A stretch of DNA of 20,000 nucleotides from an uncultured virus (IMG/VR IMGVR_UViG_3300050026_000393) (taxonomy: Duplodnaviria; Heunggongvirae; Uroviricota; Caudoviricetes), in the IMG/VR virus record IMGVR_UViG_3300050026_000393; one strand, written 5' to 3'. Below, piece by piece: positions 1,322 to 20,000 of the stretch. The notes under the pieces are model-generated. The model had not been told where the DNA came from and did no database searches. It worked only from the letters and a program-made list of their open reading frames with translations. Position 1 is the stretch's first letter; each line of letters opens with the position of its first letter. A program made the position numbers and the translations under genes.

Positions 1322-1323
1322 TT

Positions 1324-3417: not shown

Positions 3418-3426
3418 AGGTTTCTT

Positions 3427-5685: not shown

Positions 5686-7174
5686 TTCCCTATTATTAGA
5701 CCCAAATGATAGTATTATAGGAGATAGACTCTCTAGAGTTCAAGCAAATATTAACTCTCTAAATCTTTCTACAAAAGAAGAATATATTGCTCAAATTTAC
5801 TCCCAAGTAAACTCGGTATTAAATTTAGGAGATAATATGCAGGAACTTGATGTTGTAACATCAAGACCTGCAATTGTTGGAGATCTTATAACTAACTTCT
5901 CGCAATTAAATGAGGATGCTACAGACATAACAAGAGAGTTATTAAGAATTGAAGATAATCTGGCAGATTTATATAATGTGGCGGCAACAGGGCAGAATGC
6001 CTTAAAACAGGCTTTAAGAGAAACAATTTATGTTAATAATTTAAGTAGTTATTCAGAACCTTTTATTTCAACAAATAATATCTCTTCAGGGTATACTGCA
6101 AATATTGATATTAATGCAGGAAGTTCTCAACTACCTTTAATTGCAGAAACAGTTTTGTTTCCAACAATTTCCTTAGGATCAAATTGTGTAGGGACAGGAA
6201 ACGGGAATTTGTCTTCTTTATTAAACTCGACAGTAGGGTTTATTTATACTTGGAAAGGTACCTACCTTGAACTCACCATTATTTTTCCATCGCCTGTTGT
6301 AGCGAACAGACTGTATTTGGGCATAAACACTTATGAAGGACTCGCAATTACAGAATTAACGTCCTCACCTGATGGTATTATTTACAATAACATTCTAGAA
6401 GGTCTTCCTAATACTGTAAATGGAAATTACTTTATAGATGCAAGTTCGGGGAAATATTCAGGGGATGTAGTTATTGATTTTATCCCAGTATATACTCAAA
6501 CTTTAAAATTAGGTATTACAAATTTTACAAACAATCCCTCTTTTTACCTAAATTCTTTAATATTAGTAAACAGAACTTACCAGTCGTCAGGAGTATTCAC
6601 CTCTAATGGTATTACTTTGAACGGAAATAATTTAGACTTTTCTGTAGATCAGGAAGTTTTGTCCCCTTTTACTTCTATTACACATCAAATTTCTACAACA
6701 GGGGTTCAATTCAAAAATATTATTCCTGGAATTTTAACAGGACAAATTCTTTCTGGAAATCCTTTTTATTATCGGGCGTTACTTTCCCGTTCCTCTAATG
6801 CCTTTGCGAACAGTACCTCGGCGCTCTTAGATGTAAATCCAACTTATGGTATAAAAAGCCAAAGTTCTACAACAGTAAGTCCGGGGATTATTGAACAAAC
6901 GATTGTCTTGACTAATGTGCCTGAATACTCTTCTGGATCTCCGACTACCACTTCCGTAACGTTCGTGAACACTCCTATTACAAATACTTTTAATATTCAA
7001 ATAGGATCTACATACCTAACTACAGGATTTGATTTGTTAGGTAATGTTTTAACTTTTTCGGCGCCACAAACGTTAATTACTATAACATACCAGATTTCCT
7101 CATATTCTTCTGTTCAGAACCTACAAAGTTATTACACACCTTTGTTGCATCAAGTAAATTTTGAGGTAGTTTAA
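5678..7174 (+). CDS. Virion structural protein (498 aa), member 2 of a putative paralogous trio
   Basis: ATG with GAGG upstream and an 8-nt overlap with the previous gene. Helical N-terminus, discoidin-like beta region (LTIIFPSPVVANRLYL...SSPDGIIY), C-terminal TPLLHQVNFEVV. Confidence 0.7.
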   Translation: MLSSLLLDPNDSIIGDRLSRVQANINSLNLSTKEEYIAQIYSQVNSVLNLGDNMQELDVVTSRPAIVGDLITNFSQLNEDATDITRELLRIEDNLADLYNVAATGQNALKQALRETIYVNNLSSYSEPFISTNNISSGYTANIDINAGSSQLPLIAETVLFPTISLGSNCVGTGNGNLSSLLNSTVGFIYTWKGTYLELTIIFPSPVVANRLYLGINTYEGLAITELTSSPDGIIYNNILEGLPNTVNGNYFIDASSGKYSGDVVIDFIPVYTQTLKLGITNFTNNPSFYLNSLILVNRTYQSSGVFTSNGITLNGNNLDFSVDQEVLSPFTSITHQISTTGVQFKNIIPGILTGQILSGNPFYYRALLSRSSNAFANSTSALLDVNPTYGIKSQSSTTVSPGIIEQTIVLTNVPEYSSGSPTTTSVTFVNTPITNTFNIQIGSTYLTTGFDLLGNVLTFSAPQTLITITYQISSYSSVQNLQSYYTPLLHQVNFEVV

Positions 7175-8458
7175 ATGTCTACAAATACTATTCCTGTTTT
7201 TTCTAATGGAGAAACTGCTTCTGCCTCAATATTTATGCAAGCATTAACTGCTTTATATAATTCTGGTCAGAATGTTGTAGACATTCTGACTAGTTATAGA
7301 AACACTGCGTTAATAAATTTTAACAGACAGGTCGAAGCCTTAAACAATAGGGGTTCGGTTACCAACAGACTTTTGGGGACAACTACCTTAGTAAATTTTG
7401 TTACAACCGATTTCTTAGATGTAGATCAAACTCAAACCTCCGCGACAATAAGGGCAGATGCAGGAAGTGTTTCTCTTTGTGAAAAGAATCAACCTTTATC
7501 TTTTGGAGACAAAAGTACTGTATTTACAACTAACTTGGGAACTGCACAATCAATTTCTAAAGTATATGATATCTACACAGTAACAGCAGAGACTATACCT
7601 ACGGGAACATTCATAATAACTTTAAACTCAACAATAAATATTAATATTTTAAATCTAGAATTAACCGCTATAAGTTCTAATCCTGTAATAACGATAACAA
7701 CCTCAGAAGATAATGTTGTTTATACTCCCGTAAACAGTTATAGTTTAAATGGTTATAATCTAATAGCTAATTTAGACTCTACACAGGTTAAGTATATTAA
7801 TATAGCAATAACTCCTGCCGTCCCAGACACCTTGTCAGGAAATACCTACACTTTTGGATTAATATCGGTAGAAACGTCTTTAACTAATTATGAATATTCA
7901 TCGGAATTTGTAACCCTACCTATAAACTTTTGTCCAACAGGACAAAATGTAGAATACTCATCTACGCAACAAAATAATTTCAATTATTTGAATTTCAGTT
8001 CTCAACCAGGAACGTGGTATGAAGTGAATTCAGGAAGTATTTTGTCACTTCCAGGAGTGTCTTCTGTAAACCTTACAGGAATTTCGTTAGAAACCGGAAA
8101 TTATATTAATACCCCTATAACTTTTAACAGTAATGATATAATATATCCTAATACTTTAACTATTAAAGATAACACGGGAATAAACATTCCCGTTATCTTT
8201 GGTTTATCACCTTCAGATCTTAATATCTTGTATACTAGAAATAAATATATAGCAGTAAACTCAACAATATCTTCTGGAGATATTATATATACTCTTTGCT
8301 ATATAGACAATAGCTATACAGGAAGTCCTGAGAAGACATTTGACATTAATTACACCTATGGACCTAAAAACATGTCCGTGGCGCTTAAAGTTCAACTTTC
8401 AACTACAAATAATACTTTAACCCCCATCTTTAACGGGGCGACTTTAAACGAGGTTTAG
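7175..8458 (+). CDS. Virion structural protein (427 aa), member 3 of a putative paralogous trio
   Basis: TAAATG junction with GAGGT upstream. Helical N-terminus, beta region (TSEDNVVY, YTFGL), C-terminal TPIFNGATLNEV. Confidence 0.7.
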   Translation: MSTNTIPVFSNGETASASIFMQALTALYNSGQNVVDILTSYRNTALINFNRQVEALNNRGSVTNRLLGTTTLVNFVTTDFLDVDQTQTSATIRADAGSVSLCEKNQPLSFGDKSTVFTTNLGTAQSISKVYDIYTVTAETIPTGTFIITLNSTININILNLELTAISSNPVITITTSEDNVVYTPVNSYSLNGYNLIANLDSTQVKYINIAITPAVPDTLSGNTYTFGLISVETSLTNYEYSSEFVTLPINFCPTGQNVEYSSTQQNNFNYLNFSSQPGTWYEVNSGSILSLPGVSSVNLTGISLETGNYINTPITFNSNDIIYPNTLTIKDNTGINIPVIFGLSPSDLNILYTRNKYIAVNSTISSGDIIYTLCYIDNSYTGSPEKTFDINYTYGPKNMSVALKVQLSTTNNTLTPIFNGATLNEV

Positions 8459-8460
8459 AA

Positions 8461-8943
8461 ATGAAAGGTAGCAAAAAAGTACTCGCCCTCTTACAGAAAG
8501 CAATAGAATCAGAACAACTTGCCATTCGTCAATACGAGGTTCACGCAAGAGTTCAAAAATCTCAAGGGTTTAGTAAGATTAAAAAACGTTTGACTGCAGA
8601 ACACCTTCACGACGAATATAAACATCTTAAAAAACTAATGGACCGTCTCTTACAGTTAGGAGGAACCCCTGACACAAGTAAAGCAACCGAACAAAATATT
8701 GGAACAGGTCTTCCTGAACAATTTGAGAACGATCTTGCCGCAGAATACTCAACTATTGAACAATATAGAGACGCGATGACAACTTGTTTGGAAGAAAAAG
8801 ACCACCAAACTTATAGAATCCTTGAACATATATTGACAGATGAAGAAGAACATGCAGACGACTTAGAGACTCAACTTTCGTTAATAAACAAGTCCGGGAT
8901 AGAGAATTATTCCGCCAGAAATGCACATGTAGAGGCTAAGTAA
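8461..8943 (+). CDS. bfr: Bacterioferritin-family protein
   Basis: Aligns by eye over its full length with E. coli Bfr (MKG..KV...L...E..AI.QY..HAR, DE.KH, NIG, DLA.E, DEE.H.D.LET.L.LI.K.G..NY). Ferroxidase ligands E18, E52, H55, E95, E128 and H131 are present. GAGGT Shine-Dalgarno upstream. Confidence 0.92.
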   Translation: MKGSKKVLALLQKAIESEQLAIRQYEVHARVQKSQGFSKIKKRLTAEHLHDEYKHLKKLMDRLLQLGGTPDTSKATEQNIGTGLPEQFENDLAAEYSTIEQYRDAMTTCLEEKDHQTYRILEHILTDEEEHADDLETQLSLINKSGIENYSARNAHVEAK

Positions 8944-9632
8944 TGTCTACGTTAAATATCCCTACAACTCAATTAGTGTCAACGGTAATTACCGTGCCCT
9001 TGAAAGGATCACCGTCTTCTAGGGACTATAACGATACCAACACACAAAATCTCCTGGATCATGCTGCGATGATAAATACTATCAATGATAGTATTTTACC
9101 AGTACTCAACACACTTCCTTCAAGTGCTGCCTCTGGATTATTGGGCGCTACGTTATACACAGATACTTCCAGTCAAGGGCCGCTTACATATAATTCTTCG
9201 ACAAACTCTTATTTAACAGTTTCTCAAACTCTGACCTATTTATCAGGTTTGATTAACACCGTTCAAACTAACTTAGTAAATATAAATACTCAGGTTGGTA
9301 TTATAAATTCAAAACTTTCGGCCACAAATCAAAATGACATTTCTATCGCACTTCAGTCTTTTCAAACAAATATTCAAGCACAAGAAACACAGATAGTAGC
9401 TCTTCAAGAAGCTGTTGGTGTTGGGGCATTGACTTTTATAAATGAAGCTCCAAGCGGAAGTATACCCGGAACCTCTTTTACATTAACATACACGCCTTTA
9501 ATCTTCGTCGCGTTCTGTTTGGGTGGGGTCATTCAAAAACTAGGAACGGACTACACAAGAACAGGATCTAATATAATAACTAATTTTACAGTTTCTACGG
9601 AAGACTCTATATATGCGTTATATTTCAAGTAG
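8943..9632 (+). CDS. Coiled-coil virion protein with a small C-terminal beta domain (putative fibre adaptor)
   Basis: TAATG overlap with bfr. Heptad-like Q/N/I/L segment, then FINEAPSG...FTLTYTP...GGVIQKLGTDYTRTGSNI...DSIYALY, a ~65-aa module that recurs in phage structural proteins. Confidence 0.65.
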   Translation: MSTLNIPTTQLVSTVITVPLKGSPSSRDYNDTNTQNLLDHAAMINTINDSILPVLNTLPSSAASGLLGATLYTDTSSQGPLTYNSSTNSYLTVSQTLTYLSGLINTVQTNLVNINTQVGIINSKLSATNQNDISIALQSFQTNIQAQETQIVALQEAVGVGALTFINEAPSGSIPGTSFTLTYTPLIFVAFCLGGVIQKLGTDYTRTGSNIITNFTVSTEDSIYALYFK

Positions 9633-12207
9633 TTTTCTTGTGCTATTTTTTGCTGCAATTTTAATGTCGGCACAAACTAAGATTAATCCAAATACCCAGA
9701 TAGACTGGTCTGAATGGACAGGATTAAACCTAGAGACTATAACTTCTGAGAACATTGACGGTTCTTTTTATGTCACGGGGGCGCCGTCAAGTTGCACTGT
9801 CAGTTCTGTTGGGTATACAACCCAAGCGGACTGTGCTTTTTATTCTGCAATTGCTACTGCAATATCCACAGGATTCAGTCAAAAAGTAATACTCCCCTGC
9901 GGAATAAGTCTTACAAATGTAGGATGGGTGATGCCTGACATTTCTATGACATTTAGTACCCCCGCGATAGAAATTGAGGGGTGTGGAGCAGGAGATAGCG
10001 CCCCAACTATTTTACGAGCTAATACCTCCATAACCTCTGTACTTTCAACAACAGGGATAGCCTACAAGTCCCTAACTATCAAAGGGGTGCAATTCGACGG
10101 GAATGGTCTTACTACAGGTCCTGTTGTCAATCTTTCATATCTTTACTCTAGTAAAATAGGTCCTATTGATGTACGAGGTCCAAATCTATCCGCCGCACAA
10201 CGTGGTTGGAACACGTCTATTGCAAGTATAACTAATAGTTATGAAGTAAGTGTGGATAAGATAAAAGTTGCGGCCCCGAAGACTGCTTCTGTTGATGCGG
10301 TAATTACGGTCGTAGTATCTGGTGGGGTCCCTGCACTTACAAAAGTGAGTGGGGGATCAGGTTACCAAAATGGGACAACTGTGCCTATTATTCTTCGAGG
10401 ACAAGCGGTGTCTGGTGGATACCCTTGTATGGATCCCGGTTCCTATAATGGAATCGTCGTAAGTGGCGTAATAACCTCCATAACTACAGTAAGAGCAGCA
10501 AGTAATTGCTCGGCAACTCTTGTTGCCGTAGCAATGGATATCCCTCCCCAACAGTTTGGACTTTATTTAGCAGGAGTCACCGACAGCACAATTAACGACG
10601 AGGTTACACAAGGGGTTGGCGGATATACATATACTGGTGCTAATATTACACAATGCACTATAGACGGTTCCGGAAATGCTACTTTAACTATCAATACAAT
10701 TGTAGGATCTCCAATTCAGAACGGGTTGTATATGCGACCTAGCGGTCTTTCAACTTGTACTGCTTTAAATAATGTAGCATGGCCAGTTGCCAGCTACACA
10801 GGAAGTCAAGTAGTACTAACAACGACAGCAGGCGCACAAGCACTTGTGTCGGATGCGGGAGTAATTGCTGCATTTGATTATGGTGCAGGAACCTATGTTA
10901 ATAACGGAACTGTAGTTTTTAATCATTCCCATCCTTATTACTCAATTGTAGGAATAAAGGCTGGAGATGGTGTTTTTGAAGATCTTGAATGCGACTCAAA
11001 TCTCGCGTGGTGTATGCACTTAACTGGTCCAGTTACAATTAACAGTGCTCTGCTCTACTATAATATGGGACTTACATATAGTCTTAACTATTCGGGAGAT
11101 TGGCTTATTGACGGTTCGTATAACAATGCTACATTTATTAGCGGTAAATGTGTAAATTATCAGAATGCAGGAAATTATATTCAATTCAACTATGGTACAG
11201 GCGATTTGGGAGTGAACCCTTCCGCGCTCGTGTCCCCAAATCAAATAAACGTTTCATCTACGTTCCCAAGGTGCAACGGGGGAACTCCTTCTTTTTTCAG
11301 CATCGGAGCAGATAATACCAGTCTTACTCAGTGGGGGTTCCAAAGAGATCCCTCGGGACGTTGGGCCAATACCGGTTATAGCAGAAGCACCGCAACAAGC
11401 AGTACAAGTCCACAAGCGCCTCCAATTATGTTTCAAGGAAGATATTGGAATGGGACAAACGAAGGTCCAGATGAATGGGAACTTTACCCAAATATTTCTG
11501 GCGGAACTAACGGGCAATCACAGTTACAAATTAGACATTATGGAAGTTACAGTGCTTATACTGGAGTTTATATAGGTGGTATAGGAACTGGTGGAACCAA
11601 TCAGACCCCGGCATCTTTGGTTGTGACGGGTGAAGTCCGTGCGGCATATACTACGGATCCCATCACCACTGTTAGTGGATCCTTAGTAGATTCTTATGCT
11701 TCATTTATGGATTCCGGGCCTCTAAAGAGAGCTGTCTCTGGAGGTTTTACGACTTTACTCACTACTAATTATGGAGGATCCGTTACAAACCCCGATGTAC
11801 AACTAGATTTTACCTGTACATCACCGGGGACGACACACTCATGTGAACTTCAGACTCCACTAATTAGTGCAGCTTTTGTTGGAACTGATTCTAGAGGATC
11901 TCTGATTTCGGTTACTGGCGCGACTAATATTTCTAATATCCAAATTACAACAGGAACAACAACAATTTCAGCTAACACCTGTACATCAGATACCGCAACT
12001 ACAATGACAGGATTATTGGCAACATCAGCTATTGTATCACCAACACCTACTACCAGTACAAAATCTGTTACAGGTTGGGGTGCTGTTGGTGGACTTAGTT
12101 TTGTGTATTTTGCTGGTGCGAATACATTCACATGGAATGTGTGCAACTCAACATTTGCAGCTATAACTCCCGGAGCAGCAGTCACTTGGAATATAGGAGC
12201 ACGATAG
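9613..12207 (+). CDS. Signal-peptide-bearing tailspike-like protein, probable pectin-lyase-like beta-helix (depolymerase/adhesin)
   Basis: N-terminus MRYISSSFLVLFFAAILMSA|QTK. Beta-helix entry pattern (AIATA...KVILPCG...IEIEGCG...TILRA...LTIKGVQFDGNG). 16 Cys in the mature chain. Confidence 0.7.
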   Translation: MRYISSSFLVLFFAAILMSAQTKINPNTQIDWSEWTGLNLETITSENIDGSFYVTGAPSSCTVSSVGYTTQADCAFYSAIATAISTGFSQKVILPCGISLTNVGWVMPDISMTFSTPAIEIEGCGAGDSAPTILRANTSITSVLSTTGIAYKSLTIKGVQFDGNGLTTGPVVNLSYLYSSKIGPIDVRGPNLSAAQRGWNTSIASITNSYEVSVDKIKVAAPKTASVDAVITVVVSGGVPALTKVSGGSGYQNGTTVPIILRGQAVSGGYPCMDPGSYNGIVVSGVITSITTVRAASNCSATLVAVAMDIPPQQFGLYLAGVTDSTINDEVTQGVGGYTYTGANITQCTIDGSGNATLTINTIVGSPIQNGLYMRPSGLSTCTALNNVAWPVASYTGSQVVLTTTAGAQALVSDAGVIAAFDYGAGTYVNNGTVVFNHSHPYYSIVGIKAGDGVFEDLECDSNLAWCMHLTGPVTINSALLYYNMGLTYSLNYSGDWLIDGSYNNATFISGKCVNYQNAGNYIQFNYGTGDLGVNPSALVSPNQINVSSTFPRCNGGTPSFFSIGADNTSLTQWGFQRDPSGRWANTGYSRSTATSSTSPQAPPIMFQGRYWNGTNEGPDEWELYPNISGGTNGQSQLQIRHYGSYSAYTGVYIGGIGTGGTNQTPASLVVTGEVRAAYTTDPITTVSGSLVDSYASFMDSGPLKRAVSGGFTTLLTTNYGGSVTNPDVQLDFTCTSPGTTHSCELQTPLISAAFVGTDSRGSLISVTGATNISNIQITTGTTTISANTCTSDTATTMTGLLATSAIVSPTPTTSTKSVTGWGAVGGLSFVYFAGANTFTWNVCNSTFAAITPGAAVTWNIGAR

Positions 12208-12962
12208 TGAAATTTCTTATAATAACGATTCTTTGCCTCTGTCTTCCAGCCTGCGGACAATATACGAGTTATGCTCATTCTAACTCGGCGACGGTAATAA
12301 ATGCTATAAACAATGGCCAAGCCTCAACGGCTAACTGGGGTAGTTGTGTTACTTCTGCTTGTGCTGGAGGATCTGGAAACGGAACGGGCCCAACACAGAA
12401 TACAGGAATAACCTCTCCAAGTGTTAGTGGTTCTGCAATGTCGCTAACCTTCACATCTCCAGCGGCAGGAAATAATGCTCTATTTTATTGGAAACCAGGA
12501 ACAGCAGATACAAGCACATGGGTTCGTTTTGATACATATGTATACCTTCCGACGGGAGTTGCTAACTATGAATTTGATTCATTCATAATAACACCTACCT
12601 TGGACGGAATGTTTGGAAAACAGTGTAATACTGTATCAGGATTTTGGCAGTATGCCAATCAGACGAGTGCTTGGTTTAATGGACCAATACCCTGTTCGTT
12701 AACTACAGGAGTATGGCATCACTTAATATTTTCTGATTCATGGAATCCAGCAGACATAAGTTGTGGAGGATACCCTTCAGAAAAGTTTGGTTCCATAACT
12801 ATTGATGGTGTAGTGTATTCGTGGGGATCTACTTCTATATGTGCTACACCGATTCCTATAGGATGGTCACACACTTATGGGTGCCAGTTTCAAATGGATA
12901 GTAATAGTTCAGCAACTTTGACAGAGTATGTTGACTCCGTAAATTGTTGGACGGGCGAATAA
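12207..12962 (+). CDS. Secreted ConA/LamG-like beta-sandwich (lectin-like) protein (251 aa)
   Basis: The start is better placed at GTG 12207 (TAGTG overlap, GGAG at 12196-12199), giving the signal peptide MKFLIITILCLCLPACG|Q. Trp/Cys-rich beta pattern (YEFD, MFGKQC, WHHL, ITIDG, FQMD, YVDSV). Confidence 0.65.
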   Translation: MKFLIITILCLCLPACGQYTSYAHSNSATVINAINNGQASTANWGSCVTSACAGGSGNGTGPTQNTGITSPSVSGSAMSLTFTSPAAGNNALFYWKPGTADTSTWVRFDTYVYLPTGVANYEFDSFIITPTLDGMFGKQCNTVSGFWQYANQTSAWFNGPIPCSLTTGVWHHLIFSDSWNPADISCGGYPSEKFGSITIDGVVYSWGSTSICATPIPIGWSHTYGCQFQMDSNSSATLTEYVDSVNCWTGE

Positions 12963-12985
12963 ATAAGATCTTTAAAACAGATTTT

Positions 12986-13001
12986 CTATACTAGTTATAG
13001 T
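12986..13001 (+). promoter_or_regulatory. Repeated 16-bp near-palindrome CTATACTAGTTATAGT, copy 1 (putative promoter/operator)
   Basis: Exact copy at 14183-14198. Intergenic, contains the -10-like hexamer TATACT, and directly precedes the GTG at 13002. Confidence 0.6.
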
Positions 13002-13385
13002 GTGGGAAAATTTATATCTAAACTTGTAAAGGCTCGGGCAAGAAGAAAAAGACCAGTTTCTGGCCTAGAAAAACAAGTTTATGCCTTATTAGATTCGATA
13101 AAAATAAAGTACAAAAAAGAATATAAGATAAGTAGACTACACGTAGATATATTAATAGAACCTAATTTAGTCATAGAATGTCAAGGGTGTTATTTTCACA
13201 AACATGAATGCCTAAAACCAAAAGGAGGCTGGAAAGCCTCCGATTTGGTTGTTCAAGATAAGGACTCCAAAAGATTTGCCTTTCTTACTTCTCAAGGATA
13301 TATTGTAAAAGAGATATGGGAATGTGAAATGAAAGAACCTGAGAAGGTAATAAGAAAAGTAAAATCTTGGGTTAAAGGAACATAA
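13002..13385 (+). CDS. DUF559/Vsr-like PD-(D/E)XK endonuclease
   Basis: S.LEK.V...L...I.Y..EY.I....VD......LVIECQGCYFH...D..R...L...GY.V..IWECE is the Vsr/DUF559 pattern. Basic N-terminus. GTG start with no Shine-Dalgarno. Confidence 0.85.
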   Translation: MGKFISKLVKARARRKRPVSGLEKQVYALLDSIKIKYKKEYKISRLHVDILIEPNLVIECQGCYFHKHECLKPKGGWKASDLVVQDKDSKRFAFLTSQGYIVKEIWECEMKEPEKVIRKVKSWVKGT

Positions 13386-13924
13386 TGCTAAATCCTGTGG
13401 AAATAGTTGAAGACCTGCTTAATTTCACACACAAATCCTTTGCCCAAAAAGGTAAATTCCCTAAGGCTGGGGTATTAAGAGGAAACTCTAAACTCGGTGC
13501 AAAATATGCTGCTACTCAATTAGGATGGGAAGAGGGTATAAAACCTGCTCTTAAATTGGGACTTCCGTTTGCTGCTTATGCACTGGCAAAATCTTCTAAA
13601 GGTAATTTTGTTTCAACTGCTGCTTCTCAAACAGGTCAAATAGCCGGCGGTTATTTTGGAGGAGCCGTTGGTAGTCTTCTTGGAGGAGTTCCTGGAATAC
13701 TAGTAGGAAATCTTATAGGAGCAACAGTAGGAGATGAGGCAGGACAGTTGATTAATCCTATTATGGACGTAGGAAAAAGAATAAACCATTCTAACTTTGG
13801 TGGAAACTATAGAGATTCAGAGCAAGCTTATACTTATAGACAAAAAGCCAGCCAATCAATGAACTCTTCTCTATTAAATTGTAGACAATTTCTTGGAAAA
13901 GAAGCATTACTGTTACATACTTAA
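13385..13924 (+). CDS. Glycine-zipper protein (179 aa), possible virion or membrane-active protein
   Basis: TAATG overlap with AAGGA Shine-Dalgarno. GxxxG tract GQIAGGYFGGAVGSLLGGVPGILVGNLIGATVG and a helical C-terminus AYTYRQKASQSM...LGKEALLLH. Confidence 0.65.
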   Translation: MLNPVEIVEDLLNFTHKSFAQKGKFPKAGVLRGNSKLGAKYAATQLGWEEGIKPALKLGLPFAAYALAKSSKGNFVSTAASQTGQIAGGYFGGAVGSLLGGVPGILVGNLIGATVGDEAGQLINPIMDVGKRINHSNFGGNYRDSEQAYTYRQKASQSMNSSLLNCRQFLGKEALLLHT

Positions 13925-13931
13925 GGAAAAT

Positions 13932-14147
13932 ATGTCAGTTTACACACTTGAACAGCTCTCAGGAATGATGGACGCTCTAACTACTAGAGTAAATAACATT
14001 GATGGTCAAAATTTAACGCTGCCTGCACAAGGGAGTATTGCTATTAATACTGCAAAAGTAAATGGTTTAAACACTTCTGTTAAAAACCTGGTCTCAAATT
14101 TTCAAGGACAAATCTTAAAATTAAGTCAATTAATAAACAACCGATAA
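13932..14147 (+). CDS. Small coiled-coil hypothetical protein (71 aa)
   Basis: ATG at 13932 has AAGGA at 13923-13927 and is preferred to TTG at 13893. Amphipathic helices, no transmembrane segment. Confidence 0.65.
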   Translation: MSVYTLEQLSGMMDALTTRVNNIDGQNLTLPAQGSIAINTAKVNGLNTSVKNLVSNFQGQILKLSQLINNR

Positions 14148-14178
14148 TCTTGAAACTATAAAACAGAAAAAACCAACA

Positions 14179-14201
14179 TCTACTATACTAGTTATAGTAG
14201 A
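14179..14201 (+). promoter_or_regulatory. Inverted repeat TCTACTATA-ctagt-TATAGTAGA containing copy 2 of the 16-bp motif
   Basis: Perfect 9-bp arms (14179-14187 and 14193-14201) with a 5-nt spacer, ending 28 nt before the lysozyme ATG. Confidence 0.6.
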
Positions 14202-14229
14202 GATAACTTCCATATTAAGGAAACAACAA

Positions 14230-14667
14230 ATGACTTATTCTATAAACTGTGTTAATCTCGTTAAAACCTCGGAAGGACGAAGACTTAAAGTCTATACGGA
14301 TTTAACAGGCAACCCCACAATCGGATTTGGCCATAAATTAACTTCTGAAGAAAGAGGTTTACTTTTAGAAGTTGATGAGCAGAAAGCAACTACTCTACTA
14401 GAAAAAGATCTAACGACAACATGTAACTCGGTTAATTCCCTTGTAAGGGTTGCAATAACACAAGGACAATTAGATGCTCTTGTCTCGTTTACTTTTAATC
14501 TGGGCGCGGGCCGATTAAAAGAATCAACATTGTTAAAATATCTTAATAATAAAGAGTATGATAATGCAGGAAAACAAATACTAGTCTGGAATAGAGCTAA
14601 TGGAATAGTAGTTAAAGGTCTAGATACTAGAAGAAAAGCCGAATTTGAGTTGTGGAATAAAAAATAA
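14230..14667 (+). CDS. Phage lysozyme/endolysin, GH24 muramidase
   Basis: Catalytic E15-x8-D24-x5-T30 (EGRRLKVYTDLTGNPTIGFGH), plus QGQLDALVSFTFNLG and GL..RRKAE..L. TAAGGA Shine-Dalgarno. No SAR or signal segment. Confidence 0.95.
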   Translation: MTYSINCVNLVKTSEGRRLKVYTDLTGNPTIGFGHKLTSEERGLLLEVDEQKATTLLEKDLTTTCNSVNSLVRVAITQGQLDALVSFTFNLGAGRLKESTLLKYLNNKEYDNAGKQILVWNRANGIVVKGLDTRRKAEFELWNKK

Positions 14668-14715
14668 AAAGTATACTGACATAAGAGATAAACAACAAAT
14701 AAGGATAAGAGTAAA

Positions 14716-17700
14716 ATGAGAAAATTGTTTTTAGTTCTGTTATTTTTAATAACAAGTCTAAGTCTTGGAGCGCAGTCTGTTACTATTACAGATACTCCCT
14801 TAAATACCAATGGAGCCATAGTTCCTGGAGGTGTACTAGACTTTGCATTAGTAAATTGCTCTCAGGCAAATAACACTCTTTTTACAAAAGATGTTATTTT
14901 AAATGCTAGTGGAGCTTTTTCGGTAATTCTACCAGAAACAGTTTCGCCTATCAGTTACCAAAAAACTAGTACCACATGTACAAGCACCCCTTATTATCAA
15001 GTAACCTTTAGAAATCCTCCAGAAACTTCTGTAAGTTTAACTTCCGGTAGTTTTATTTGGACCAAAGCTTATTCCTTTAATGGGACAACGGGGAGTTTGC
15101 AAACTCCACTGTCTGTCCTTCCAACAGGAACTGGAATCCCGGAGATAAGTAAAACCCAGACAACTGTGGTAGGTCCTATTAGTACTACGCATTTAGATGT
15201 CCCTGTATTTACAGGAACAAACGGCCAGATTATAGATAGTGGTTTTCTTATAAGCAGTTTCCAACCAACCCTAACTCTGACGACTGTAGGAACTAGTGGT
15301 GCCGCTACCTTAACAGGAGCTACCTTAAATGTACCTACTCCAAGTGGTTCCGGAAGTTCTAGTCTATCCGGTATGACAGCGACACAGATTCCTGTAGCAG
15401 CGACAGCAACCACAGTTACCAGCAGTACGTCTGATCCAACGCTAACTGGCGTGAACGGAACGGCTATTTATCCGTGGAGCTGGTATGTTGCCTATGGCGA
15501 TTCAATCACATTTGAATTCGATGGTCCCGCCAATCCGTCTAACGGATACGCTTATCTGATTGGAGAAACACTAGGGGTTCCTGTTCAGAACCATGGTCAT
15601 AACTCCAGACAGACGGGCGATCTAGAAGCAGAGATTTACTCCATTGGCTGTCCATCGGGAAGTTTATGCAGTAGCGCACTCGGCACCAATGATGTTACCT
15701 TTTGGGCGAACAATTCCAATAGCATTGCGAACTACACTGACGAGAAAATGGCAGAACTGGCGTACTTAGCCATTCCGGCAACAGCCAAACAGACCGCTCA
15801 GGGTGGAGCGCAAGGAAGTGCCAGCACCTGCACCTACACTGGGACTTGGAACACCACTACACTGTCTGGTTGGACCAACTTCAGTAACGCTGCTACAGCA
15901 ACAAACACGGTAGAGAAACGTGCATCGTCTAACGGTGCAACTGTAACTTGCACCGTGACCGGGACGACAATCTATATTGGCAACACAATGCAGGACGGTG
16001 ACACCGCTACGGCAAGTTACACTGTTGACGGGGGCAGCTCGGTCAGCATTCCTTCAGTTGGGACAGGTGGAGCGACGATCGCAACCGACCCATCAGGTAT
16101 CTTCTACGGCCCCCATCTCACAAGGATTACAGGTTTATCGAACACCTCTCACACGGTAGTCATCACCGTGGCAACTTCATCCACTTCAAACTATTTCAAC
16201 TTTGACTGGATTGCAGGTATCAGCGGTCTACCAGCCAATGCCCCGACTATCCTTTATGCTACGCCACTGGCGACCAATCCTCTGTTTGGCCAGCTTGCAA
16301 CGGTAACCATTCACTCAGGTGCGGCGGGAACAGGGTACACTGTGGGAGATGTGATTACCTACGGTGCTGGCGTTGGGGGTAACACCACTGTAGCAACTGT
16401 TTCATCAGGGGTTCCTACATCGTTATCTCTTAACATAGAAGGCACCGCTTACGCAATCGCCGGAGGGACAAACATAGCAACTTCGGGTGGAACAGGAACA
16501 GGACTCAAGGTGGATTACACTGTCTCTGACCATACTGGACTCTACAACGCAGCAGACGCGTCAGTGGCGGCAACTCTCAATGGCGACGGCCTGACAAACA
16601 TCATTCCTGTACTTCAATACAACGCACTGACGACAACCTACGCAAACACGGTGGTTACACCCTCAACCTTACCTACAGGGTACACGGCATCGGGGATGTA
16701 TTTCGACAGTGTGCATCCTAATGATTTTGGTTACTGGCTTGAAGCTCACTACTGGCTGGACACGTTAGCTACAGCAAATGGTCTGAAATACCCGGCTCTG
16801 CCATCATGGCTTGGACCCCGACTATTCAACAACATCTCTGTTGATATAGGAAGTCTCGCTGTAGGATCACAGACCTGCACCAGTATCACAACTGGAACTC
16901 AGAATGTGTGTCTGGGCGAACTCGTTGGGACTGCTATGACAACCGGCTCTGGAAATGTTTTCGCTGGTTACAAAACAGCAGCAACAGGCACCACTGGATA
17001 TACAAATACAGTGGGTGTGGGAGAACTTGTATTTAACGCAAATACGGGGGCACTGGTAGGTAATGTTGCGGTAGGTGCTCAGACTCAGCAAAAGGCAAAG
17101 GGACCGGGAAGTGCCTCTGTTGGCTATTTCAGCATGAATAGTGACCAGAGCACTCTTGGTTATAATTCGTCATTGGGTGCCTTTTCCATGTACTGCCCAA
17201 CAGGTGCCACCGGTTCTTACAATACTGCTATAGGTTCGTACAGTATGTGCGGATTAAACGTATCAGCCACTCTAAGTGGTGACCACAATACAGCAAATGG
17301 CTACGCCGCAGGTGGATACAATGGATCTGGCGCGGGTAATGTGTTCATAGGCTCTCTGAGCGGGGTGACGGCAACAGCAGCCAACGCAAACGTTACTGGC
17401 TCGAATAACACTTGGGTAGGAAGCGGAACAGGGCCATCATCTACCACGCAGGTATCAAACACAATAGCAATCGGTAGCGGAGCTACAGTAGCAGCGAGTA
17501 ATACCGGAACTATTGGAGTTTCAGCATCTACTCAGTTAACACTCTTCGGGATTATCTCACCCGGTGTAGTCTACAGCCATGCAGGTACACAGCTAGCAGC
17601 GTGTGGAGCTACGACTCTTGGGTGGGCAATGGTAAGTGATGCTTCCAGTCTGACTCCTGGGACGGCATACTCAGTAACAGCGGGTGCGGGATCTATTACA

Positions 17701-17754
17701 GTAACCGTACAATGCACATTAACGGGCGGCACCTACGCATGGCAAACGATGTAA
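14716..17754 (+). CDS. Signal-peptide-bearing fibre-like protein with SGNH/GDSL esterase domain and C-terminal YadA-head-like beta-roll repeats (1012 aa)
   Basis: MRKLFLVLLFLITSLSLGA|QS. Fibre-stalk motifs (VGP.S...VPVFTGTNGQIIDSG; QPTLTLTTVGTSGAATL.G.TLNVP). SGNH blocks GDS (15496), NHG, GTND (15682) and DSVH (16705). N-[TVS]-x-[IVL]-G repeats at about 16900-17480. Confidence 0.8.
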   Translation: MRKLFLVLLFLITSLSLGAQSVTITDTPLNTNGAIVPGGVLDFALVNCSQANNTLFTKDVILNASGAFSVILPETVSPISYQKTSTTCTSTPYYQVTFRNPPETSVSLTSGSFIWTKAYSFNGTTGSLQTPLSVLPTGTGIPEISKTQTTVVGPISTTHLDVPVFTGTNGQIIDSGFLISSFQPTLTLTTVGTSGAATLTGATLNVPTPSGSGSSSLSGMTATQIPVAATATTVTSSTSDPTLTGVNGTAIYPWSWYVAYGDSITFEFDGPANPSNGYAYLIGETLGVPVQNHGHNSRQTGDLEAEIYSIGCPSGSLCSSALGTNDVTFWANNSNSIANYTDEKMAELAYLAIPATAKQTAQGGAQGSASTCTYTGTWNTTTLSGWTNFSNAATATNTVEKRASSNGATVTCTVTGTTIYIGNTMQDGDTATASYTVDGGSSVSIPSVGTGGATIATDPSGIFYGPHLTRITGLSNTSHTVVITVATSSTSNYFNFDWIAGISGLPANAPTILYATPLATNPLFGQLATVTIHSGAAGTGYTVGDVITYGAGVGGNTTVATVSSGVPTSLSLNIEGTAYAIAGGTNIATSGGTGTGLKVDYTVSDHTGLYNAADASVAATLNGDGLTNIIPVLQYNALTTTYANTVVTPSTLPTGYTASGMYFDSVHPNDFGYWLEAHYWLDTLATANGLKYPALPSWLGPRLFNNISVDIGSLAVGSQTCTSITTGTQNVCLGELVGTAMTTGSGNVFAGYKTAATGTTGYTNTVGVGELVFNANTGALVGNVAVGAQTQQKAKGPGSASVGYFSMNSDQSTLGYNSSLGAFSMYCPTGATGSYNTAIGSYSMCGLNVSATLSGDHNTANGYAAGGYNGSGAGNVFIGSLSGVTATAANANVTGSNNTWVGSGTGPSSTTQVSNTIAIGSGATVAASNTGTIGVSASTQLTLFGIISPGVVYSHAGTQLAACGATTLGWAMVSDASSLTPGTAYSVTAGAGSITVTVQCTLTGGTYAWQTM

Positions 17755-17800
17755 ATGAGCGAACGACAGACTCCACACCATCGTGTATATAGAACATTAA

Positions 17801-17839
17801 GACATAAGATCCATTTCAATGGATCTTATGTTTTTATTT
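17801..17839 (+). terminator. Putative intrinsic terminator hairpin
   Basis: ACATAAGATCCAT (17802-17814) pairs with ATGGATCTTATGT (17819-17831), a perfect 13-bp stem with a TTCA loop, followed by TTTTATTT. The stem is AT-rich. Confidence 0.65.
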
Positions 17840-17876
17840 AAACAATAAAGAACCAAAGGAGTTAAGAGAGAAAGTA

Positions 17877-20000
17877 ATGAAAAAATATATTTTAGCATTT
17901 TTACTTTTATTTAGTTTCCCTTGTATTTTTGCACAGAGTACTTCCTTAATCTCTGGTATTCCCTTAAACAATACTTCATCTCCTGTTCCGGGGGGAACTG
18001 TCTCTTTTTCTCTAGAAAATTGTTTATCAGGAACAGCTCCCTTATATAAAATAAATTCCCCCTTATCTTCAACTACGGGAAACTTTGTAATTACCTTACC
18101 ACAAACTACATTTTATGTAGAATACCAATCAAAACTTTTTACCTGTAAATTTTCTCCATATTATCAAGTCCAATTATTAGATTCAACAAACACATTAATC
18201 TGGACAAAATATTATACTTATACAAGTTCAACAGGAGATCTTTCTACTCCAATAACTGTAATAAACTTACCTGTTGGTGATTTTACAACCACATTAAGTT
18301 CATCTTCAGGACTTGTGATTCCGAATTTAACAGTAGACAGCCAAGGCAACATGACTACCACAAAGCAAATTGCTGCAAGTACCCTAGTGGCTGGTGCTAC
18401 GAACTCGGTCACAATTGGTGGAGCCACTGGAAGCTGTGCAGGACAATATGCCAAGGCTGATGGGACCGGATGCGGTACGCCGAGTGGAGGCACGACAGGA
18501 ACTACACCAGCACTTGGCTTTGCTACTCCAACCGCAATTGGCGACTCACTCACGCAAGGAATGGACGGTACTCCATATCCAACACAGATTAGCACTAACC
18601 TAGGACTTGCCGTAACCAACCTGGGCTCATGCGGCCAGACATCAACTCAGATCGCAGAGCGCATCGGAGCAGAATCAGTTACAGTTACACTGACTGGAAA
18701 CTCCATTCCGACTAGCGGCAGCGTGATAATCACGGCATCCAATCCAGTGGGTGTAACGAGCGGCTGCGGTGGTCCGTCAGTAGCCGGAACCATTGCTGGA
18801 GTACCGGGGATAATCTCTTACAGCAGCCCTAATGTGCTGTTCACGCCGACAGTTTATCCGGGAACGGCACAGACCGTCTCGAATCCGGTGCTGTTCACTC
18901 CAACGGTGACAGCGACAGAGTTCAACGGTCTGAATATCATCTGGGTCGGGCGCAACAATTACCCCTCGCTGTCTACAATAATGGCGGACATAGCCGCTAT
19001 AGTAGCCTATCTGCCCACTCCGAAAAACTATCTCATTATGAGCATCATCAATTCTGATAACTACGGGGTTGAGTACATAGGGCAGACTGGCTATAACGAG
19101 ATCGCCGCCGACAATGCAGCTATCGCCGCAGCGTATCCAAACAACTATCTGGATATTTGGTCCATTCTTGTGGCAGCATACAATCCTGCCAGCGCACAAG
19201 ATGTGATTGATAACAGTCACGGCGTGGTTCCAAGCTCTCTGCGGGGAGTCGGAGCTTACGGGACACTCACAGCAGCGGTGACTACGACCGGACAGACTTC
19301 GATAGGAATAGCAGCTTGCCCAGGAGGTTACGGTGGCGGCACGATTGTTGTCGGTACCGAGTTGATGGAGATCACCGCCTGTACATCAAATACAGCGACG
19401 GTGCTTCGCGGATACGCCGGAACATCTGCTGCCACATATCTGATCAACACGGCCTATACGATCACTGATACGATCCATCTGAACACGACAGGGTACGGAC
19501 TTGTATCCAGTTCGGTAGACACATGGATGAGAGCCAACATAAACACGATTCCAAACGTGAACGGAATCTACGACATGCTCTCGACATACCAGGCACAGAA
19601 CTCTACTGCTGGTATGATTACGATGGGCAGCGTAAAATCAGGCACACTGGCAACAGACTTGAATACTCAGACCTCATGGCCTTGGATCGGCTATGCAACT
19701 ACAGCAGCTACGGCTAATATACCAACGACTGGAAGCGGCACATATTACGTCACTGTGCTCAGCATAGGGACTTCTGCGAATTACTTGACCCAGATTGCTG
19801 TAGATACGAATGGACTGCTGTTCACTCGGTCAAAGACCGCGACGTGGGGTTCTTGGAATCAGATTGGAGCATCAGGAACAGCAGGCCAGCTTGCCTATTT
19901 TGCATCCACTGGAACCACGCTCAGCAGCGTTGTAACGCTTCCCGTGCAATCAATTGCAAACTTGGGAGCGCAGACGGTGATTCCAACCGTGCTGACGGGA
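17877..20000 (+). CDS. Signal-peptide-bearing fibre-like protein with SGNH/GDSL esterase and pyocin-knob-like domain, 3'-partial (at least 708 aa; absent from the ORF track)
   Basis: Hand translation from ATG 17877 is open to the window end: MKKYILAFLLLFSFPCIFA|QSTS... SGNH blocks GDSLT (18540), NLGSCGQT, GRNN and DTIH (19467). The segment DLNT...NIP...YLTQIAV...LFTRSK..TWGSWNQI (19656-19869) matches the knob pattern of tail fibres. The N-terminal domain is paralogous to that of 14716. Confidence 0.88.
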   Translation, partial: MKKYILAFLLLFSFPCIFAQSTSLISGIPLNNTSSPVPGGTVSFSLENCLSGTAPLYKINSPLSSTTGNFVITLPQTTFYVEYQSKLFTCKFSPYYQVQLLDSTNTLIWTKYYTYTSSTGDLSTPITVINLPVGDFTTTLSSSSGLVIPNLTVDSQGNMTTTKQIAASTLVAGATNSVTIGGATGSCAGQYAKADGTGCGTPSGGTTGTTPALGFATPTAIGDSLTQGMDGTPYPTQISTNLGLAVTNLGSCGQTSTQIAERIGAESVTVTLTGNSIPTSGSVIITASNPVGVTSGCGGPSVAGTIAGVPGIISYSSPNVLFTPTVYPGTAQTVSNPVLFTPTVTATEFNGLNIIWVGRNNYPSLSTIMADIAAIVAYLPTPKNYLIMSIINSDNYGVEYIGQTGYNEIAADNAAIAAAYPNNYLDIWSILVAAYNPASAQDVIDNSHGVVPSSLRGVGAYGTLTAAVTTTGQTSIGIAACPGGYGGGTIVVGTELMEITACTSNTATVLRGYAGTSAATYLINTAYTITDTIHLNTTGYGLVSSSVDTWMRANINTIPNVNGIYDMLSTYQAQNSTAGMITMGSVKSGTLATDLNTQTSWPWIGYATTAATANIPTTGSGTYYVTVLSIGTSANYLTQIAVDTNGLLFTRSKTATWGSWNQIGASGTAGQLAYFASTGTTLSSVVTLPVQSIANLGAQTVIPTVLTG

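Follow-up and report, generated by a model that had tools for sequence, protein, structure and literature searches.

The window, by which we mean the whole stretch of 20,000 nucleotides that was analysed, comes from an uncultured virus of the Caudoviricetes (IMG/VR IMGVR_UViG_3300050026_000393), and all genes described here are on its plus strand. It begins with six leaderless tail-module proteins (2-1321, 1324-2901, 2902-3417, 3427-5685, 5678-7174 and 7175-8458). Their genes are syntenic with those found downstream of Baseplate_J in a related 178-kb provirus (G002), in the same order and at 27-46% identity; in that provirus the syntenic genes are preceded by those for Baseplate_J, a giant SLT-bearing protein and a protein resembling a capsid protein. 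The protein encoded by 2-1321 is fibre-like with a Gp53-like C-terminus, and a viral scan with 3427-5685 gave no match. The next gene (8943-9632) encodes a leaderless, fibre-like protein of 229 aa, whose N-terminal 164 aa are conserved (44% identity to L002/L003). In every jumbo relative (L002, L015, L018, L019, L020) a similar gene immediately precedes that of the leader-bearing fibre, and we regard the 8943 product as a candidate baseplate-side partner of that fibre. The four genes that concern us most (9613-12207, 12207-12962, 14716-17754 and 17877-20000) lie at the distal end of the tail module and are co-oriented with the tail genes. Between the two pairs there is a cassette (13002-14667) which, on the basis of Pfam/PHROG matches and synteny, encodes a DUF559/Vsr-like endonuclease (13002-13385), a glycine-zipper protein (13385-13924), a small ORF (13932-14147) and a phage lysozyme (14230-14667). 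The first three of these genes occur in the same order in L002/L003.

An earlier note on this DNA had pointed out leaders at the start of these four proteins, and all four ORFs and their leaders are as it described. Each protein starts with basic residues, continues with hydrophobic ones and reaches a small residue followed by Gln. The leaders are MRYISSSFLVLFFAAILMSA in 9613 (residues 1-20, 9613-9672), MKFLIITILCLCLPACG in 12207 (residues 1-17, 12207-12257, with a GTG start and AGGAG 8 nt upstream), MRKLFLVLLFLITSLSLGA in 14716 (14716-14772) and MKKYILAFLLLFSFPCIFA in 17877 (17877-17933). Leaders were called with a crude home-made n/h/c-region rule, which flagged four of the 16 window ORFs picked, exactly these four, and four of the 167 ORFs in provirus G002. 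For signal peptidase I we looked for a basic n-region, then some 10-16 hydrophobic residues without interruption, and at positions -1 and -3 a small or neutral residue, and by this home-made rule all four proteins carry a type I signal peptide. In the order 9613, 12207, 14716 and 17877, the residues at -1 are A, G, A and A and those at -3 are M, A, L and I; a Met at -3, as in 9613, is not usual for signal peptidase I. Position +1 is Gln in all four, as it is in all 23 aligned members of the 12207 family.

It might be asked whether translation really begins before these hydrophobic segments. Motifs resembling a Shine-Dalgarno sequence precede 11 of 15 starts in the window, and no in-frame start preceded by such a motif was found within 90 codons past any of the four leaders. 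Another possibility is that the hydrophobic N-termini stay uncleaved, as membrane tethers or structural helices of fibres assembled in the cytoplasm. To our knowledge all tailed-phage assembly is cytoplasmic, which counts for this explanation, as do the Met at -3 of 9613 and the home-made nature of the rule. However, the alignments show that homologues keep the leader character while the letters of the hydrophobic core vary, and that the first mature residues, from Gln +1 onwards, are conserved. This is the pattern of a leader that is removed and not of a docking helix. The constant Gln of the 12207 family, which matches the leader style of the host, and the even-numbered, pairwise covarying cysteines described below also argue against uncleaved N-termini, and we consider this explanation improbable.

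The cysteine counts given in the earlier note were exactly reproduced. After the leader there are 16 cysteines in 9613, 8 in 12207, 12 in 14716 and 8 in the visible part of 17877, an ORF that is open at its 3' end, compared with 1, 0, 6, 1, 3 and 1 in the leaderless ORFs 1324, 2902, 3427, 5678, 7175 and 8943. An even mature count is found in all nine complete leader-bearing proteins and in 5 of 15 leaderless tail proteins (Fisher p = 0.002, for rows that are not independent). Across the 23 aligned members of the 12207 family cysteines appear, vanish or relocate in pairs. The enrichment is only modest in 14716 and 17877 (1.2%), and equally high proportions occur in two proteins that have no leader, the endolysin (1.4%) and the endonuclease (3.2%).

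The first pair of genes is closely tied to the tail module. The start of 9613 lies 20 nt inside ORF 8943-9632, 12207 abuts the stop of 9613, and the GC3 of both is ordinary for the window (0.29). The 864-aa product of 9613 is a leader-bearing protein of the beta-helix fibre or tailspike type, for which an ESM-Atlas model aligns with parallel beta-helix clusters (TM 0.66 by row, to be taken as a lead only). Its mature N-terminus, QTKINPNTQIDW, forms a module that we call type A. This module is common to 9613 and two fibres of G007, a complete P2-like myophage, and its conservation starts exactly at Gln +1. The C-terminal 80-100 aa or so (about 11950-12204) are also conserved. In the window and in L053, L054, L055 and L057 this domain is immediately followed by a 12207-like gene. 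A search of a large protein index with 9613 returned the query itself as the sole match.

The second gene of this pair encodes a protein of 251 aa that is predicted to be exported and for which 26 homologues were found (48-78% identity). A leader and an even number of mature cysteines, either 8 or 10, are present in each of the 23 family members that were aligned. A reading of 12207 as a lipoprotein, with Cys after LPA, was rejected because this Cys is absent in many members and Gln +1 is invariant. With the alignment of 23 sequences AF2 gave an all-beta model with a pLDDT of 86.8, compared with 32 without it. In Foldseek the model has jelly-roll matches (E 4e-6 to 1e-4, TM 0.43-0.55), which include the phi24B esterase entry 6yp6, glucuronan and alginate lyases and legume lectins. 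The modelled fold of 12207 is thus a ConA-like beta-jelly-roll, and its candidate function is that of a lectin or of a protein similar to polysaccharide lyases. A metagenome scan with the family yielded only five contigs of 1.0-3.5 kb.

The second pair appears to encode two SGNH esterases of the fibre type, built on a common Ig-like N-terminal domain, which we call type B. It spans about 14773-15135 in 14716 and 17934-18278 in 17877, and both of its cysteines are invariant at 32-38% identity. In the 1012-aa protein 14716 a motif search placed the SGNH blocks at residues 261 (GDS), 323 (GTND) and 664 (DSVH), and the PHROG tail-spike match is weak (E 0.0058). The 17877 protein, of at least 708 aa, continues with a stalk module common to another phage (18318-18500) and an SGNH domain of the tailspike type (about 18534-19250). 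Its residues 220-455 match phrog_11419 'tail fiber protein' (E 3.7e-39), the SGNH region matches the solved tail spike 9sij (E 4.9e-9), and the blocks GDS, GxN(D/N) and DxxH were found by motif search at residues 222, 358 and 445. For PF13472 (GDSL) both proteins score below the gathering cut-off of 32.9 bits (21.6 for 14716, 19.9 for 17877). The earlier note had seen several tail-fibre hallmarks in the set. They are borne out in part: 17877 has the matches just given, the beta-helix of 9613 stands as a lead, and 14716 has only its motifs and a GDSL score below the cut-off. The YadA-like repeats found no support in Pfam at E<=5, which added nothing for five fibres and gave no YadA/Hep_Hag match. 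A large protein index searched with the N-terminus of 14716 returned only the query. The type-B profile, run against 1.8 billion representatives, gave five matches including the query; two are FN3-repeat proteins matched over short stretches, and in P0006 the domain is internal, with no leader adjacent to it.

The genomic setting of these two genes differs from that of the first pair. They sit after the lysozyme gene, their GC3 (0.40 for 14716 and 0.44 for 17877) exceeds that of the ORFs at 1300-14667 (0.19-0.30), and they are separated by a terminator-like site on the plus strand (17802-17838). This site is a 13-bp perfect hairpin followed by TTTTTATTT; the scan listed the hairpin on the minus strand, and the plus-strand T-run was read by eye. 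Position, GC3 and hairpin together may give the two genes a moron-like character. Two contigs from RNA libraries diverge from the window at 15425, just past the N-module of 14716.

The relatives of the window are a syntenic family of 178-214 kb proviruses and the 64-kb myophage G007. Integrases in G002 and G007 and 'provirus' labels in IMG/VR mark them as temperate, and one of the proviruses lies within an Acidobacteriaceae MAG. Our rule called 23 cleavage sites in about 0.5 Mb of this MAG, and 9 of them have Gln at +1. A Bacteroidota host, raised by the sites with Gln after Ala, was set aside in view of the Acidobacteriaceae prophage, these host sites and the Shine-Dalgarno motifs. The GC content of the window (0.32-0.51) is lower than that of its relatives (0.57-0.60), and its host may not be theirs. 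The phage itself is common: near-identical DNA turns up in the public runs of 17 studies, which mostly bear the label of peat or permafrost metagenomes, and contigs from the RNA libraries of four studies cover structural and leader genes at >= 99% identity. Word depth in these libraries is higher over 14.7-20 kb, but such contigs cannot show transcription or rank genes, so we draw nothing from it. Megablast of the window DNA against phages gave no match, and neither did tblastn of 9613, 14716, 12207 and 5678 against cultured phages.

The deviating GC3 of 14716 and 17877, and the fact that the window ends inside 17877, could suggest that we are dealing with ordinary host genes for surface proteins, which lie beside a prophage or were assembled next to one. 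Their homologues are instead found in phage tail modules. The type-B domain occurs once in the Acidobacteriaceae MAG (5.4 Mb), inside the prophage; beyond the window our search found type A only in phage G007, and neither module was found in this MAG outside the prophage. Type-B fibres with a leader are present in L002 (MRQLKSILAFLFVLLPVLAYG before Gln), L018 (MRRLLASIVLALSALVSSG before Gln) and L054 besides 14716 and 17877, and in L002, L018 and G007 the gene for the leader fibre has tail genes on one side and lysis genes on the other. Together with the similarity of the 17877 SGNH domain to phage tail fibres and spikes, this makes an origin as host genes very improbable.

An argument for a role in host recognition comes from G007, which CheckV rates as 100% complete and which has a terminase, portal, sheath, tube, gpU, Baseplate_J and Tail_P2_I. 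From Tail_P2_I to the lysozyme it encodes a 102-aa ORF for which no leader was called and four proteins with leaders (359, 1034, 264 and 958 aa); three of these four leaders were flagged by the rule and that of the 264-aa protein was recognised by eye and in alignment A5. All fibre candidates in this stretch, which ends at the endolysin, bear a leader, and the other large ORFs of G007 belong to replication, packaging or unknown families, none of them fibre-like. This leads to the idea that the exported proteins are the phage's own host-recognition gear. In the window and the jumbo relatives, leaderless fibre-like proteins such as those of 2-1321 and 8943 are also encoded, so that the exported set need not be the virion fibres.

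The proteins might instead be exported and never join a virion, acting as receptor-destroying or receptor-masking enzymes and lectins on the envelope polysaccharides of the producing cell. Possible roles would be superinfection exclusion or lysogenic conversion in lysogens, or the removal of receptors and slime that would otherwise hold progeny back on debris. The temperate nature of the relatives fits this, as do the moron-like setting of 14716 and 17877, the suitability of SGNH esterases with intact catalytic motifs for receptor de-acetylation, the leaderless fibre-like proteins that could serve the virion, and two small leader-bearing proteins with Gln +1 in the early region of G007, which are typical morons. 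What makes us think it unlikely is the lack of any leaderless fibre candidate in the complete G007 genome, the classic fibre layout with a conserved N-module and swapped distal parts, and the overlap of 9613 and 12207 with tail genes. In addition, a signal peptide leads only to the periplasm, with no outer-membrane route evident, and leader proteins of the cultured phage phi18:3 are annotated as found in virions by MS/MS.

We therefore return to the view that the four ORFs encode the receptor-binding and depolymerase set of a tailed phage, exported through Sec, processed by signal peptidase I and oxidatively folded, which we consider probable. The core proposal of the earlier note, that adhesin- or depolymerase-type proteins are exported for oxidative folding, has come through every refutation test that was run. 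A Sec-type signal peptide would take each newly made protein into the periplasm of a diderm soil host, the relatives being integrated in Acidobacteriaceae. Signal peptidase I would cut the protein just before the invariant Gln, and in the periplasm it would fold with disulfide bonds. The leaders and how they are conserved, the pairing of cysteines, the domains and the place in the tail module are what we observed; export, cleavage and disulfides are what we infer for all four. The mature proteins appear to be directed at glycans, with the beta-helix enzyme 9613 and the co-inherited jelly-roll protein 12207 beside the two putative esterases. A fibre-poor particle built in the cytoplasm would meet them only once holin and endolysin open the envelope. 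Attachment to virions at lysis is the least certain part and is proposed tentatively, although among docking, surface remodelling and matrix clearing it is docking that we favour on genomic grounds. A fuller scheme, possible but one we would lean slightly against, is that of two-compartment virions in Acidobacteria-like peat bacteria. Capsid, tail and baseplate would be made in the cytoplasm, and the whole receptor-binding apparatus, Sec-exported, cut before Gln and disulfide-bonded in the periplasm, would snap onto fibreless particles only after the inner membrane has been opened by the holin. Docking elements would then be the conserved mature N-modules, type A (QTKINP..Q..W) and the Ig-like type B, and 12207 the tip adhesin or a chaperone of the 9613 fibre.

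If the receptor-binding proteins of these phages do mature in the periplasm, this would be a widespread exception to the rule that tailed phages are assembled wholly in the cytoplasm. It would account for the way in which soil phages come by fibres and depolymerases stabilised by disulfides, and it would predict a late extracytoplasmic assembly step that inhibitors of Sec, signal peptidase or Dsb could block. The expression of receptor-binding proteins for host-range work would also have to change, since such proteins would misfold when expressed in the cytoplasm.

The canonical tailspikes and fibres that are known have no signal peptide, and both their folding and their attachment take place in the cytoplasm. 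The window proteins share with canonical SGNH and pectate-lyase beta-helix spikes (9sij, phrog_11419) the enzymatic domains, the distal position in the tail module and a modular layout of fibre or spike domains, conserved N-module and exchangeable distal parts, but all four differ from them by a leader and by paired cysteines. The leader set of G007 follows Baseplate_J and Tail_P2_I, which is exactly the place of gpH and gpG in P2, where we take the order to be gpJ-gpI-gpH-gpG. No homology of the G007 proteins in this slot to gpH or gpG was detected, and unlike in P2 the four large occupants all begin with leaders. A receptor-binding protein with a Sec leader and periplasmic disulfides is known from filamentous phages, whose pIII is assembled by extrusion through the envelope of the living cell. 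The window phage, in contrast, is tailed, lytic or temperate, and its capsid and tail are cytoplasmic. T5 Llp, lambda Lom and phi80 Cor are exported exclusion or conversion proteins which, like the proteins described here, have a signal peptide and are encoded in or beside fibre genes. They are, however, small single-domain envelope proteins, whereas here we see fibre- or enzyme-type proteins of 250-1700 aa with shared N-modules.

The Gln at +1 recalls the Q-rule of Bacteroidota, which concerns signal peptidase I substrates with Gln after the leader (PMC5837995). Q-rule proteins have been reported from phages of P. gingivalis, with unknown function and not as fibres (PMC10367356). The likeness extends to the Gln and to phage proteins copying the leader style of the host, and the difference is that the relatives of the window sit in Acidobacteriaceae and that most starts in the window follow a Shine-Dalgarno-like motif. 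A keyword search of titles, abstract beginnings and passages found no publication on signal peptides of tail fibres.

The earlier note had called this a candidate new system, and here two cultured phages qualify its claim, as their records contain the same leader trait, apparently unremarked there. In the Bacteroidota podovirus Cellulophaga phi18:3 (NC_021794.1), gp085, gp086 and gp087 are large proteins, encoded one after another immediately ahead of the lysis genes. Like the window proteins they have a basic and hydrophobic leader followed by Gln. They account for three of the four hits of our rule among 59 CDS, and in the record they are annotated, 'based on experimental MS/MS proteomics', as structural proteins or tail proteins. 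BLASTP gave no match between them and the window proteins at E<=1e-3, and with only 0, 1 and 3 cysteines they are not of the disulfide type. The second case is Tunturi_1 (PP887698.1), a cultured podovirus of the acidobacterium Tunturiibacter. Its gp12, gp13, gp14, gp16 and gp17 have leaders, four of the five followed by Gln, and lie between a 'tail protein' and the endolysin. The authors of the record named gp14 'tail spike protein' and gp17 'virion structural protein', and the term 'signal peptide' is absent from the main text of the Tunturi_1 paper. The large leader proteins have 20, 10, 21 (one of them in the leader) and 32 cysteines. The likeness to the window consists of leader, position and cysteines; tblastn of 9613, 14716, 12207 and 5678 against a phage collection that includes Tunturi_1 gave no match. 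An odd number would remain in gp16 after removal of the leader, and this, together with the few cysteines of phi18:3, means that disulfides are not a constant companion of the leader. Since both phages are in culture and share the leader trait, Tunturi_1 and phi18:3 make the question directly testable.

Four ORFs of the window, named here by their start coordinates (9613, 12207, 14716 and 17877), encode proteins that begin with a leader of one or two basic residues, 13-16 hydrophobic residues and a small residue followed by Gln, with cleavage presumed before the Gln. An earlier note had read these N-termini as signal-like and the proteins as Sec-exported, disulfide-rich fibres. The N-termini were borne out by the ORF translations and by a home-made n/h/c rule, which flagged 4 of the 16 picked window ORFs, exactly these four. 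Applied to the related 178-kb provirus G002, the rule flagged 4 of 167 ORFs, two of them at the first start codon, the fibre being one of this pair. The true starts might lie downstream of the leaders, but this is argued against by the absence of an SD-like motif at every in-frame start codon within 90 codons downstream of the leaders of the four ORFs. Such motifs (GAGG, AGGA, AGGAG or AAGG) precede 11 of 15 window starts; 12207 starts with GTG, which is preceded by AGGAG and adjoins the stop of 9613, which itself starts 20 nt inside the preceding tail gene.

The mature proteins contain 16 (9613), 8 (12207), 12 (14716) and 8 (17877, 3'-open) cysteines, and a recount reproduced the numbers previously given for the leaderless window ORFs. 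Cysteine counts are even in all nine complete leader-bearing proteins (16, 8, 12, 24, 6, 14, 22, 20 and 10) against 5 of 15 leaderless tail-module proteins from the window and L002, a part of G002 described below (Fisher p = 0.002, with rows that are related to each other). A 359-aa protein of the relative G007 was omitted from this count because the end of its leader is unclear.

All sizeable window ORFs lie on the plus strand. No useful Pfam or PHROG family was found for the ORFs in 2-8458 and 8943-9632, save a sub-threshold match of ORF 2-1321 to a Gp53-like fibre C-terminus. The other annotated genes encode a ferritin-like protein (8461-8943; PF00210, E 1.3e-27), a DUF559/Vsr-like endonuclease (13002-13385), a glycine-zipper protein (13385-13924) weakly matching tape-measure and tail-lysin PHROGs, and a phage lysozyme (14230-14667).

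A scan of viral contigs with the N-domain shared by 14716 and 17877 identified a piece of G002, labelled a provirus, that is syntenic with the window (L002). Its genes include homologues of 2-1321 (27% identity) and of 1324, 2902, 3427, 5678, 7175 and 8943 (35-46%), after which come one 1696-aa protein and then counterparts of the endonuclease, the glycine-zipper protein and the small ORF next to it. Upstream genes in G002 encode Baseplate_J, a giant SLT-bearing protein and a capsid-like protein. Near-identical copies of this piece occur in four more records (G003/L003, G006/L015, L019 and L020), L020 lying within an uncultured Acidobacteriaceae MAG, and a divergent copy (L018) comes from a 214-kb provirus with a completeness rating of 99%. 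The leader ORFs of the window belong to a phage tail module.

The ferritin-like gene is placed within the tail-fibre module. At the corresponding place L015 carries an ORF (12738-13307) with an N-terminus that resembles it by eye; L002 and L020 have no ferritin-like ORF there. The endonuclease is 53% identical to its L002 counterpart (14995-15393). Throughout the jumbo relatives it keeps its place between fibre genes and lysis genes, a stability unusual in homing-type nucleases. The glycine-zipper protein adjoins the lysis genes and could be holin-like or membrane-active; its C-terminal 64-82 aa also occur elsewhere in G002 and G003 (L008 14741-14986; L004 2922-3113).

The leaders are conserved along with the fibres. 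The 1696-aa protein begins with MRQLKSILAFLFVLLPVLAYG and then Gln, and the L018 fibre (512 aa, start 13464) with MRRLLASIVLALSALVSSG and then Gln. Behind the leader, both share with 14716 and 17877 an Ig-like domain of about 110 aa (type B) at 32-38% identity, in which both cysteines are invariant. The mature N-terminus of 9613 (QTKINPNTQIDW) is of a different type (type A), found again in two fibres of the different phage G007; in their alignment with 9613 conservation begins exactly at Gln +1, and the hydrophobic cores differ. A 143-kb viral contig (L001) encodes a 1215-aa protein that starts with MKTLLAFLTFAMVVTTAIVA and then QQ. Its 61-aa stalk module is shared with 17877 at 78% amino-acid identity, and the stalk DNA (window 18318-18500, L001 10001-10201) aligns over 180 nt with 83% mean column identity. 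By eye only, L001 also seems to have a 751-aa protein with an intein-like insert (5890-8145) and, nearby, two GIY-YIG-like ORFs (16013-18640).

For 12207 we found 26 homologues at 48-78% identity. The window protein and 22 of the homologues were aligned (23 rows), and four shorter proteins of 143-175 aa (P0021, P0024, P0025 and P0032) were omitted. Every row has a hydrophobic leader, Gln at +1 and 8 or 10 mature cysteines, which are lost, gained or relocated pairwise. In precursor numbering, 47/52 and 226/247 each disappear as a pair from one member; 100 and 103 are both present in 15, both absent in 6 and split in 2; and 186 occurs with 212 in 14 members and with 191 in 8. The covarying pairs are taken as 47/52, 140/163, 186/212 and 226/247. 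The AF2 prediction from this alignment is all-beta (pLDDT 86.8), and Foldseek matches the model to ConA-like jelly rolls (TM 0.43-0.55) of legume lectins, of glucuronan and alginate lyases and of the phi24B esterase entry 6yp6. A fibre with the conserved 9613-type C-terminal domain lies directly 5' of the 12207-family gene in the window and in four other sequences (L053, L054, L055 and L057), and in L053, L054 and L056 another leader-bearing ORF comes after that gene, of type B in L054.

Our main argument comes from the P2-like myophage G007 (63.9 kb, CheckV completeness 100%), which encodes terminase, portal, prohead protease, sheath, tube, tape-measure, gpU, Baseplate_J, Tail_P2_I, lysozyme and integrase. 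The stretch from Tail_P2_I to lysozyme contains one 102-aa ORF in which no leader was called, plus four proteins with hydrophobic leaders: the 359-aa protein, a 1034-aa type-A protein with a weak GDSL match, a 264-aa member of the 12207 family and a 958-aa type-A protein that is pectate-lyase-like. Three of these leaders were flagged by the rule, and that of the 264-aa protein comes from reading by eye and alignment A5. The other large ORFs surveyed in G007 either have no family or encode enzymes such as nucleases, helicases and a methylase, and none looks fibre-like. Since all fibre candidates of this phage bear leaders, such proteins would be virion receptor-binding proteins and not accessories. 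Leaders are kept by the homologues in L002, L018, G007 and the 12207 family, and those in L002, L018 and G007 lie in phage tail modules. Two small proteins in the G007 early region (L060 7588-7953 and 8110-8760) also have a leader and then Gln; these are secreted proteins of the moron type and do not belong to the fibre set.

Residues 220-455 of 17877 match phrog_11419 (E 3.7e-39), the solved tail spike 9sij and, in 31 phage records, tail fibres and spikes, and a motif search found GDS, GxN(D/N) and DxxH kept in both esterases, 14716 and 17877. For 9613, the ESM-Atlas model gives alignments to beta-helix clusters, a lead only. GC3 rises from 0.19-0.30 in earlier window genes to 0.40 in 14716 and 0.44 in 17877, which, with the stalk module shared with L001, suggests that phages differing in GC have recently exchanged modules. 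A perfect 13-bp hairpin with a T-run (17802-17838, plus strand) between the two genes is likely an intrinsic terminator, and 17877 may therefore be transcribed separately. The GC3 values and the hairpin with its T-run make 14716 and 17877 look moron-like, which speaks against the mechanism proposed below. RNA-library contigs from two studies (X16 and X19) follow the window to 15425, a point close behind the N-domain and stalk of 14716, and then share the same unlike sequence; in other strains this N-module seems to be joined to another distal part.

Near-identical DNA to window 9001-19000 was found in 20 listed runs from 17 studies, mostly labelled peat or permafrost metagenomes and six of them RNA libraries; the phage or its fibre region is widespread. 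Within roughly 0.5 Mb of Acidobacteriaceae MAG G004 (L024-L050), 41 of 378 ORFs have an n+h region; the rule called a cleavage site in 23 of these, with Gln at +1 in 9. By eye, several more Ala-Gln sites can be made out that the rule missed. A preference resembling the Q-rule may exist outside Bacteroidota; the excerpt of PMC5837995 limits the Q-rule to Bacteroidetes and leaves Acidobacteria unmentioned. Type-A and type-B modules, sought in the Acidobacteriaceae MAG, were absent outside the prophage. The GC of the window is much lower than that of its relatives, and this MAG may not represent its host.

Judging from sequence, we infer that the leader proteins would be exported, cleaved before Gln and stabilised by disulfides; a further step, suggested by G007 and by the annotation of Cellulophaga phage phi18:3, is that they might attach to particles at lysis. 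Leaderless fibre-like proteins in the window phage also argue against this mechanism. Among known systems, gp12, 13, 14, 16 and 17 of Tunturi_1, a cultured phage of Tunturiibacter psychrotolerans, have leaders too, and the main text of the Tunturi_1 paper (PMC11924767) nowhere uses the term 'signal peptide'. Excerpts of two other papers describe, for P. gingivalis phages, proteins with Q-rule leaders and of unknown function (PMC10367356) and, in the other paper, signal peptides on 5% of prophage CAZymes, with tail fibres excluded there (PMC13507307). In phi18:3, which is grown on Cellulophaga baltica, gp085-087 bear such leaders and are annotated as structural or tail proteins from MS/MS; unlike the window proteins they lack cysteine pairs, which again counts against the mechanism. 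The leader-bearing fibres are a real, conserved variant of phage receptor-binding proteins, apparently one that the literature has not described.
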